Positions 17,026-18,348 of a stretch of DNA of 18,348 nucleotides are shown piece by piece (the stretch's first letter is position 1; each line of letters starts with the position of its first letter). The DNA is taken from IMG/VR virus record IMGVR_UViG_2636415477_000006, positions 1 to 18,348 of that record; one strand, written 5' to 3'. The stretch is from a virus. Lineage: Duplodnaviria > Heunggongvirae > Uroviricota > Caudoviricetes. Made by a program: the position numbers and the translations under genes. A model generated the notes under the pieces. It searched no databases. It saw nothing but the letters and a program-made list of their open reading frames with translations, and had not been told where the DNA came from.

Positions 17026-18117
17026 ATGGCATTTAAACACTATGACGTGGTCAGGGCATCATCGCCGTCAGACCTCGCAGGAAAACTGACGCAAAAACTG
17101 AAGGAAGGCTGGCAACCCTATGGTAGTCCGATTATCTCAAACGCGGGTTATGGTGCTGAATTTATCCAGGCTATAGTCGCTGAAGGGGATATGACCTCTC
17201 CGGTAGTTTCACCGGGGGGAGATGGTACCCGGACTGTTGTTGTTGAACCAGAATATTACTTTGTCATTGCGCTGGCCGGACAGTCAAACGGCATGGCGTA
17301 TGGTGAAGGCCTGCCGCTGCCGGAGACATATGACCGTCCGGACCCGCGTATTAAACAGCTGGCGCGTCGCAGTACGGTGACACCGGGTGGTGCGGCCTGT
17401 GCATATAACGACATCATTCCGGCGGACCACTGCCTGCATGATGTGCAGGATTTGAGCCGTTTTTCTCATCCGAAAGCCAGCGCAGAGCAGTATGGGTGTG
17501 TCGGACAGGGATTGCATATTGCCAAAAAGCTGTTGCCCTTTATGCCGGAAAATGCGGGTATTTTGTTAGTGCCGTGCTGTCGTGGTGGCTCTGCGTTTAC
17601 AGCCGGTGCTGACGGAACGTTCAGTGAAAGTTCAGGAGCGTCGGATAAATCTGAACGATGGGGCGTTGATAAGCCGTTGTATAAAGACCTGCTGACACGC
17701 ACTCAGGCCGCGCTGAAGGCAAACCCCAAAAACATACTGCTTTGTGTTGTCTGGATGCAGGGCGAGTTTGATTTAAAACAGGGAGCGTACGCCAGTCAGC
17801 CCGCCATGTTTGATGCCATGGTGGAAAAATACCGTTCTGACCTGGCGGGAGTATCCGGTCAGTGCGCTGGTGCTTCTCCTTCTCTGGTGCCCTGGATTTG
17901 TGGTGACACGACGTACTACTGGAAGGAGACGTATTCAGCGCAATACGATGCCGTCTATGGCGCATACAAAACCAAAGCCGGTAAAAATATCTTCTTTGTG
18001 CCGTTTATGATGGATGACAATGGTCAGAAAGTCGGGACTGCGTATTTTCATGAAAGGAGATCACTCAATAACTTCCATCGAGATCGGGTAATAACATTTG
18101 AACAGATCGCTGAATAA
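17026..18117 (+). CDS. nanS: Prophage NanS-like 9-O-acetyl-sialate esterase (SGNH hydrolase with DUF1737-like N-terminus), 363 aa; probably 3'-truncated by the IS at 18112
   Basis: GGGAGG SD 5 nt upstream of the ATG at 17026; GQSN esterase motif in …FVIALAGQSNGMAYGEG…; N-terminal MAFKHYDVVRASSPSDLAGK… typical of Stx-phage nanS-p genes; last codons and the stop lie inside IS-end-like repeats. Confidence 0.65.
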   Translation: MAFKHYDVVRASSPSDLAGKLTQKLKEGWQPYGSPIISNAGYGAEFIQAIVAEGDMTSPVVSPGGDGTRTVVVEPEYYFVIALAGQSNGMAYGEGLPLPETYDRPDPRIKQLARRSTVTPGGAACAYNDIIPADHCLHDVQDLSRFSHPKASAEQYGCVGQGLHIAKKLLPFMPENAGILLVPCCRGGSAFTAGADGTFSESSGASDKSERWGVDKPLYKDLLTRTQAALKANPKNILLCVVWMQGEFDLKQGAYASQPAMFDAMVEKYRSDLAGVSGQCAGASPSLVPWICGDTTYYWKETYSAQYDAVYGAYKTKAGKNIFFVPFMMDDNGQKVGTAYFHERRSLNNFHRDRVITFEQIAE

Positions 18118-18348
18118 CATCGATGGAGATCACTTTTGACTCATTTTGTTATTCAGTGATCTCCATCAATGTTATTGGAACTTCACAGGTGTGTTGATCT
18201 GTATCTTTTGCCATTCCGGTAAAGGATACCTATGCCAACAGTTCCAATTTCTATGAGAAAACTTAAAGAAATTCTTAGGCTTAAATACGGTGTTGGACTC
18301 AGCCATCGACAAATTGGTCGTAGTCTTGCAATCTCCCCTTCCGTTGTA
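18112..18348 (+). mobile_element. Left end of an insertion sequence (IS21-family-like) with nested terminal repeats; transposase (IstA-like) CDS starts at 18232 and runs off the window
   Basis: Translation from 18232 gives MPTVPISMRKLKEILRLKYGVGLSHRQIGRSLAISPSVV, an IstA-type N-terminal HTH; 22-bp inverted repeat (18112..18134 versus 18155..18177) and repeated GTTATT/GATCTCCATC motifs upstream. Confidence 0.5.

Follow-up and report, generated by a model that had tools for sequence, protein, structure and literature searches.

We conclude that the nanS-p-like esterase gene at the end of the window (by which we mean the whole stretch of caudoviral DNA analysed here, 18,348 nucleotides of IMG/VR record IMGVR_UViG_2636415477_000006) was interrupted by the simple insertion of a single copy of the insertion sequence (IS) ISEc12, an explanation that we consider the best overall and hold with very high confidence. 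A single, apparently intact ISEc12 transposed into codon 338 of a 657-codon gene, and its integration, either simple cut-and-paste or replicative, generated a 5-bp target duplication with no target DNA lost. A preliminary description of the window, made from its letters without database searches, had proposed that the esterase is cut short by an IS21-family element, and profile matches to both of the element's proteins (NF033546, NF038214, Pfam rve and IstB_IS21) bear this out.

Where does the esterase gene end and the IS begin? When window positions 16900-18348 were compared by megablast with 5,426 complete E. coli genomes, the 100% identical matches all ended at 18038, and the targets ending there were annotated as 'SASA family carbohydrate esterase'. 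The intact esterase gene of NZ_CP060083 (1974 bp, 657 aa) reads ...AAAGTCGGGAC/CAATGAACCG across this point, whereas the window reads ...AAAGTCGGGAC/TGCGTATTTTCATG. The left boundary of the IS is 18039 (TGCGTATTTTCATG...), 74 bp upstream of the inverted repeat that had drawn attention to the region; the preliminary description was right that an IS is present but had set its edge at the repeat, whereas 18038 is the last position of esterase homology and the very next base is the IS terminus. The terminus motif found there, TGCGTATT..., agrees across the junctions of independent copies, and the left terminus TGCGTATTTTCATG is common to copies in unrelated contexts, with 129 distinct flanking contexts. 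The window itself stops inside istA, 310 bp into the IS (Table 1).

The 363-aa esterase ORF reported in the preliminary description is present as described (17026-18117): translation of the window begins at an ATG at 17026, with a GGGAGG ribosome-binding site upstream, and ends at a TAA at 18115-18117. It is a chimera. Its residues 1-338 are those of the intact protein (a shared prefix of 338 aa), and codon 338, which straddles the junction, still encodes Thr. The stop does lie inside the first arm of the repeat (18113-18134), as had been stated, but the IS contributes more than the last codons, since the final 25 residues and the stop are all IS-encoded. When the ORF was set against full-length homologues, the intact form was found to be 657 aa long and none of them ended where the 363-aa ORF does. 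Pfam places DUF1737 at residues 3-53 of the 363-aa product and SASA at residues 83-274; the former (PF08410, 53/53 of the profile covered, E = 3.6e-17) is the N-terminal domain of NanS-p.

Table 1. Features of the disrupted esterase gene and of the left end of ISEc12, in window coordinates.
Feature	Position	Strand or orientation	Remarks
Chimeric 363-aa ORF	17026..18117	+	338 native residues, then 25 residues (AYFHERRSLNNFHRDRVITFEQIAE) and a TAA stop encoded by the IS
Native 5' part of the nanS-p-like (DUF1737 + SASA/NanS-like) esterase gene	17026..18038	+	100% DNA identity to intact 657-aa genes
Target-site duplication GGGAC, left copy	18034..18038	.	In L005/L006 GGGAC/CAATGAACCG comes directly after the right IS end; intact allele is GTCGGGACCAATGAACCG
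ISEc12, first 310 bp (of 2581)	18039..18348	+	Terminus TGCGTATTTTCATG; 0 mismatches to the complete L005 copy
Four direct 22-bp copies, L1-L4	18044..18134	+	Exact 23-bp spacing; presumed IstA binding sites
L1	18044-18065	direct	16/22 to unit; inside the terminal inverted repeat
L2	18067-18088	direct	16/22 to unit
L3	18090-18111	direct	15/22 to unit
L4	18113-18134	direct	22/22 to unit
L5inv	18155-18176	- (inverted)	21/22 to unit; with L4 forms the inverted repeat of the preliminary description
istA 5' end, first 39 codons (helix-turn-helix region)	18232..18348	+	Window 18232 is L005 11207, start of the 513-aa IstA; NF033546

The complete insertion was recovered solely by an exact look-up of the 363-aa product in public assemblies. 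Only closely related public contigs (99-100% identical), which extend outside the window, show the right end, the duplication and the gene's 3' part. The exact product occurs on seven public contigs, drawn from four isolate assemblies at NCBI and two metagenome assemblies at ENA, and one further metagenome contig (L107) carries the same junction, giving a total of eight independent contigs from isolates and gut metagenomes; one of them, L007, is 100% identical to the window across 11,171 nt. In contig L005 (GCA_029082495.1) ISEc12 occupies 11014-13594, which is 2581 bp, ends in ...GGTAATACGCA and has GGGAC on either side. Extension of the sequence in this contig thus yielded both the other end of the IS and its 5-bp duplication, as had been proposed as a check. 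The esterase gene resumes in L005 at the exact next base after GGGAC, and the right junction of a second contig, L006, is identical. In-silico removal of the IS and one GGGAC from L005 restores a 657-aa ORF that differs from the intact L001 allele at four residues. The suggestion that the IS had replaced the 3' part of nanS-p does not hold, as that part lies directly after the IS in both L005 and L006. None of the 5,426 complete E. coli RefSeq genomes contains the junction, and the allele is therefore rare. An exact-match scan of species-representative genomes (one per species) gave neither the junction nor the IS left end, and an exact scan of viral sequences for the junction gave no match.

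Judged by its sequence, the element is ISEc12, a catalogued IS, and it displays all five structural and sequence features that define the IS21 family. The first is the gene order, read in L005, of istA (DDE transposase) followed by istB (AAA+ helper ATPase). The 513-aa IstA matches NCBIfam NF033546 'IS21 family transposase' with 310 bits (cut-off 160) as well as Pfam rve and Mu-transpos_C_2, and the 248-aa IstB matches NCBIfam NF038214 with 270 bits (cut-off 200) and PF01695 / IstB_IS21 with E = 2e-67. The IstA-like start noted earlier right after the repeat is accordingly that of a genuine IstA, at 18232, and the transposase ORF belongs to ISEc12 rather than lying outside any IS. Second, the ends are imperfect terminal inverted repeats of the form 5'-TG...CA-3' (left end TGCGTATTTTCATGAAAGGAGATC, right end GATCTCCTTCACGGTAATACGCA). 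Third, both ends bear further repeats (L1-L4, R1 and R2), which take in part of the terminal repeat, and fourth, there is a short target-site duplication (4-8 bp, with 5 bp typical), which is GGGAC in both L005 and L006. The fifth is near-identity to ISEc12, found against RefSeq-annotated ISEc12-family records. Both L005 proteins are 100% identical to RefSeq ISEc12 proteins, with IstA identical to the RefSeq ISEc12 IstA of contig L004, and across its 2581 bp the element shows 0-2 nt differences from the copies in L003 and L004.

The homology search that named the IS was also informative about its abundance. Window positions 18030-18348 matched 2,169 records, the best match being at least 99% identical in 2,122 of them, and at least 80% of the segment was covered in 1,905; among the records of complete E. 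coli genomes, about 2,100 have ISEc12 at an identity of at least 99%. The matches were annotated 'IS21-like element ISEc12 family transposase' (RefSeq) and lay in many unrelated chromosomal and plasmid contexts. Among 51 complete ISEc12 copies with distinct flanks, 46 were 2581 bp long, and the target duplications were of 5 bp (20 copies), 6 bp (six), 7 bp (nine) or 8 bp (one), with none in 15. The first four junctions hinted at a target preference for CGGG(A)C/A, but this was gone among 129 distinct left flanks from viral and metagenome contigs; it had appeared because BLAST ranks first those hits that extend by chance into the query's own flank. For IS21 elements, 5-bp duplications and a lack of target specificity are documented (PMC10122671).

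What, then, is the inverted repeat? The 22-bp repeat with a 20-bp gap given in the preliminary description is confirmed (22-nt arms at 18113-18134 and 18155-18176, 95% complementary, 20 nt between them) and is far beyond chance: folded as RNA the region reaches -32.7 kcal/mol (z = -5.1), a value that no shuffled sequence out of 200 equalled. When both ends of the complete L005 copy were searched with the 22-bp unit AATAACATCGATGGAGATCACT (which is L4), the two arms emerged as members of a larger array. The right end has, from the outside inward, R1 (14/22) and R2 (19/22) at the same 23-bp spacing as the left-end copies and then a weaker inverted copy, and the 2.2-kb interior of the IS holds only two weak matches to the unit (13/22). 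The L4/L5inv repeat sits inside the left end of ISEc12 in every copy. Ends of IS21-family elements are built of direct repeats, L1/L2 and R1/R2, and for tetramer formation and integration IstA requires each end to have two complete repeats (PMC10122671). From the arrangement of its units, the ISEc12 array is the multiple-terminal-repeat layout typical of IS21, and by analogy we infer that the 22-bp units are IstA binding sites for assembly of the transposase tetramer.

Could L4/L5inv instead serve mainly to shield istA from read-through of the host gene, either as a hairpin in the RNA or as an operator? Such a role would be compatible with our main explanation, and some features invite it: the predicted fold is strong, it lies between the outside end of the IS and the istA ribosome-binding site, which in this case places it inside a read-through late transcript, and autoregulation of the operon via binding of IstA to the ends has been proposed (PMC10122671). 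We nevertheless consider it unlikely. The scan gave no terminator-like call at the stem, and a unit that recurs in direct orientation at a constant spacing of 23 bp, and is found in the right end too, fits protein-binding sites better than RNA structure. An RNA role for the hairpin is the less likely one because there is no T-run 3' of the stem, because the istA ribosome-binding site and start (18222-18234) are outside the hairpin and because the direct copies have no RNA rationale. IstA binding sites thus remain our preferred interpretation of the array.

The consequences of the insertion for the esterase can be predicted from comparison with its characterized relatives. Residues 71-391 of the intact protein align with NanS (PDB 3pt5; E = 3e-118), and its residues 437-653 align with the crystallised NanS-p C-terminal domain (PDB 6yp6; E = 1e-43). 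In NanS the catalytic residues are Ser19 and His301 (PMC9063846); these are S30 and H312 in the 3pt5 chain, which is offset by an 11-residue tag, and they stand opposite Ser87 (in GQSNG) and His372 (in RKTHFGSW) of the intact protein. The intact L001 allele has a complete NanS-like SGNH catalytic domain. The 363-aa product does not, in that it keeps Ser87 (GQSN) while His372 is beyond the break, and it also lacks the C-terminal lectin-like jelly-roll domain (PDB 6yp6 / DUF6645). In L005 the lectin-like part is found after the IS as a separate predicted 261-aa DUF6645 ORF, whose GTG start corresponds to residue 397. Read-in from the IS to the 3' part is blocked by an in-frame TAA in the right terminal repeat, and the segment 339-396, which includes His372, has no start codon; residues 339-396 are probably untranslated. 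Because both His372 and the lectin-like C-terminal domain are missing, there is a strong case from sequence that the truncated product would have lost esterase activity and be catalytically dead.

The DUF1737 domain, by contrast with the parts beyond the break, is intact in the 363-aa product and may still be produced. The DUF1737 of phi24B gp84 has been reported in a 2026 preprint to be a hexameric capsid-binding, or decoration, domain (bioRxiv 10.64898/2026.04.10.717836), and the truncated product has a Tyr at position 42, which matches the phi24B anchoring residue by number. Did the insertion turn a bifunctional capsid-decoration/esterase protein into one that only decorates? This is speculative, and we would give rather little credence to it jointly with the further idea that the inverted fifth repeat, L5inv, is an operator or insulator not yet described for IS21 elements.

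The insertion site lies in the late region of a lambdoid prophage that carries no stx, between Q on the upstream side and the lysis genes on the downstream side. The gene order of L005 and L006 is antiterminator Q, a DnaD_N-like ORF, the esterase, holin, lysozyme, Rz, a terminase-size ORF and portal; the large terminase-size ORF had no Pfam hit and is called 'terminase' solely via the RefSeq annotation of L001. This is the lambdoid position between Q (or stx) and the lysis genes, and the annotation of L001 is concordant. Neither stx nor, with ARAGORN, an upstream tRNA was found. Between the gene after Q and nanS-p there is an ORF-free region of 1.3 kb with two STnc100 sRNA matches; a recent tandem duplication of this sRNA region was considered, as L005 does not have window positions 16176-16555, and was rejected, the two STnc100 copies being only about 70% identical.

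An additional question is whether the IS affects its neighbours. In its orientation, istA points in the direction of late transcription, and the element lengthens the late operon by 2.6 kb. The preliminary description had raised the possibility that an outward promoter at an IS21-type end alters late-gene expression. The promoter known at IS21 junctions has its -35 box in the right end and its -10 box in the left end, needs two tandem copies and drives istA (PMC10122671). The ISEc12 right end does have a TTCACG 10 nt from its tip, but the flank 17 nt downstream of it in L005 is ATGAAC, with 2/6 matches to TATAAT, and a promoter consensus scan of both junctions of the single copy found no promoter-like site; the proposal of an outward promoter is consequently not upheld for this single copy. 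A hypothetical tandem junction, assembled by eye, would offer TTCACG, a spacer of 16-18 nt and TATTTT (8/12 matches), which is weak and irrelevant to a single copy. Might the insertion still alter expression of the downstream lysis and morphogenesis genes through polarity? A scan of the + strand found no terminator-like sites inside the IS, and the lysis, terminase and portal genes downstream in L005 are intact. In lambdoid phages the Q-modified RNA polymerase reads through terminators. We therefore regard an effect on downstream late-gene expression, through either an outward promoter or polarity, as improbable; the downstream late genes are probably still expressed through Q-antiterminated read-through.

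Two other accounts of the junction itself fare worse. The preliminary description had interpreted the repeat as terminal repeats of abutting IS ends, in a nested or tandem arrangement, with the 3' part of nanS-p replaced. The repeat is real and does lie just upstream of istA, and tandem copies with abutting ends are known for IS21 elements (PMC10122671), but the terminus motif TGCGTATT occurs only once, at 18039, and the 20-bp spacer between the repeat arms has no CA/TG end junction. Instead, 18039-18348 is one contiguous left end of ISEc12, in which the repeat is L4/L5inv; this stretch has 0 mismatches in 310 nt to the complete 2581-bp L005 copy, and about 1,900 records contain single ISEc12 copies collinear with it. 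In L005 and L006, moreover, the IS is followed by the 3' part of the gene. With no second end and a single terminus motif, abutting ends are unsupported, and we consider this account very improbable. Least credible of all is an assembly chimera in which a contig end was wrongly joined to a repeated IS. The window does end inside a multi-copy IS, as is typical of short-read contig breaks, and L007-L010 likewise break off no more than about 160 bp from where the IS begins, but the same junction is found in eight contigs from different projects. L005, as well as L006 (across an N-gap), also reaches the right end, where the 5-bp duplication is perfect and the gene resumes exactly. Simple insertion of one ISEc12 is the explanation that we retain.

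How does this insertion compare to those already described? In E. coli ST131 clade C, ISEc12 splits tssM with a 5-bp duplication, and that insertion has become fixed there (PMC10711316). The two cases are alike in being gene disruptions by simple insertion with TG...CA termini and a 5-bp duplication. The element itself matches known copies, with identical IstA and IstB and 0-2 nt differences in 2581 bp, and only the insertion site differs: here it is a prophage nanS-p-like gene at GGGAC, unlike that of the tssM copy. The gene has also been hit before, as IS1203/IS629 (IS3 family) and ISEc8 (IS66 family) have been found inside nanS-p of Stx2a phages (PMC10462455). Those alleles share with ours the same accessory gene, located between Q (or stx) and the lysis genes. 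However, in our case the IS is of the IS21 family (ISEc12), the prophage has two STnc100 sRNA copies in place of stx, and the break falls inside the catalytic domain, whereas theirs falls in the C-terminal region.

In terms of the structure of its ends, ISEc12 resembles IS21 and IS5376, which likewise have direct repeats at both ends that take in part of the terminal inverted repeat. It departs from the L1-L2 and R1-R2 layout of those elements in having four direct repeats and one inverted repeat at its left end, and two direct repeats and a weak inverted one at its right end. In terms of the esterase, the intact allele aligns to both NanS (YjhS, PDB 3pt5) and NanS-p / phi24B gp84 (6yp6) and the DUF1737 N-terminal domain is present, but the window allele departs from these proteins at residue 338, where its native part ends without His372 and without the lectin-like domain.

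As gene disruption by ISEc12 and the presence of IS elements in nanS-p have both been published, the insertion is a routine instance of a known process, although we found no paper on this particular insertion site. Its significance is largely limited to annotation: the 363-aa 'SASA family esterase' and the 261-aa 'DUF6645 protein' are the two halves of one IS-disrupted pseudogene. The junction GGTCAGAAAGTCGGGAC/TGCGTATTTTCATG is a possible lineage marker for those few E. coli strains and gut metagenomes in which it occurs. The insertion also provides a further example of nanS-p as a dispensable gene of lambdoid prophages in which IS elements have repeatedly landed.

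Target duplications were variable among the 51 complete ISEc12 copies that we surveyed in viral and metagenome contigs (loci L011-L170): most commonly they were 5 bp long (20 copies), with others of 6 bp (six), 7 bp (nine) and 8 bp (one), and no target consensus was visible across 129 distinct flanks. That 15 of the 51 had no duplication at all suggests recombination between ISEc12 copies or adjacent deletions. The left end of the element, with four direct 22-bp units and one inverted, has more repeats than IS5376 and IS21, for which L1/L2 are described, and the right end, as seen in a contig with the same junction (L005, GCA_029082495.1), mirrors the left-end layout with two direct units and a weak inverted one.

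Features of the window and related loci
Feature	Location	Strand	Basis or layout
Opposite-strand cassette	window 10483-12221; L001 (intact esterase allele) 1-1313	-	oppositely oriented ORFs
isrK	window 12162-12239	+	Rfam, 69 bits
C4 antisense RNA	window 12265-12349	+	Rfam, 66 bits
STnc100 sRNA, copy 1	window 16118-16309	+	Rfam
STnc100 sRNA, copy 2	window 16585-16794	+	Rfam
ISEc12 left-end repeats	window 18039-18176		four direct 22-bp units, one inverted
ISEc12 right-end repeats	L005 13486-13594		two direct units, one weak inverted
DUF6645 protein, 261 aa	L005 13775-14560, beyond window		gene-caller annotation

Both STnc100 copies (145 and 138 bits, against a gathering score of 47) lie in a 1.3-kb gap without ORFs between the post-Q ORF and the esterase gene, the position occupied in Stx phages by tRNAs and stx. 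The two are only ~70% identical, and window 16176-16555 is absent from L005, so that just one copy, a hybrid, would remain there. Elsewhere, the adjoining isrK and C4 matches of the nin region precede an ORF6N/P22_AR_C antirepressor-like gene, and a minus-strand cassette sits between the prophage replication and nin genes; it encodes a DUF4145 protein (224 aa, versus 163 aa in L005), an HTH protein and a RelE/ParE (Gp49) toxin.

Gene callers treat the detached 3′ portion of the esterase gene in L005 as an independent DUF6645 protein, starting from a GTG at residue 397 of the intact esterase. Counted with the 363-aa product, it makes two pseudo-proteins from one disrupted gene, which inflates protein databases.
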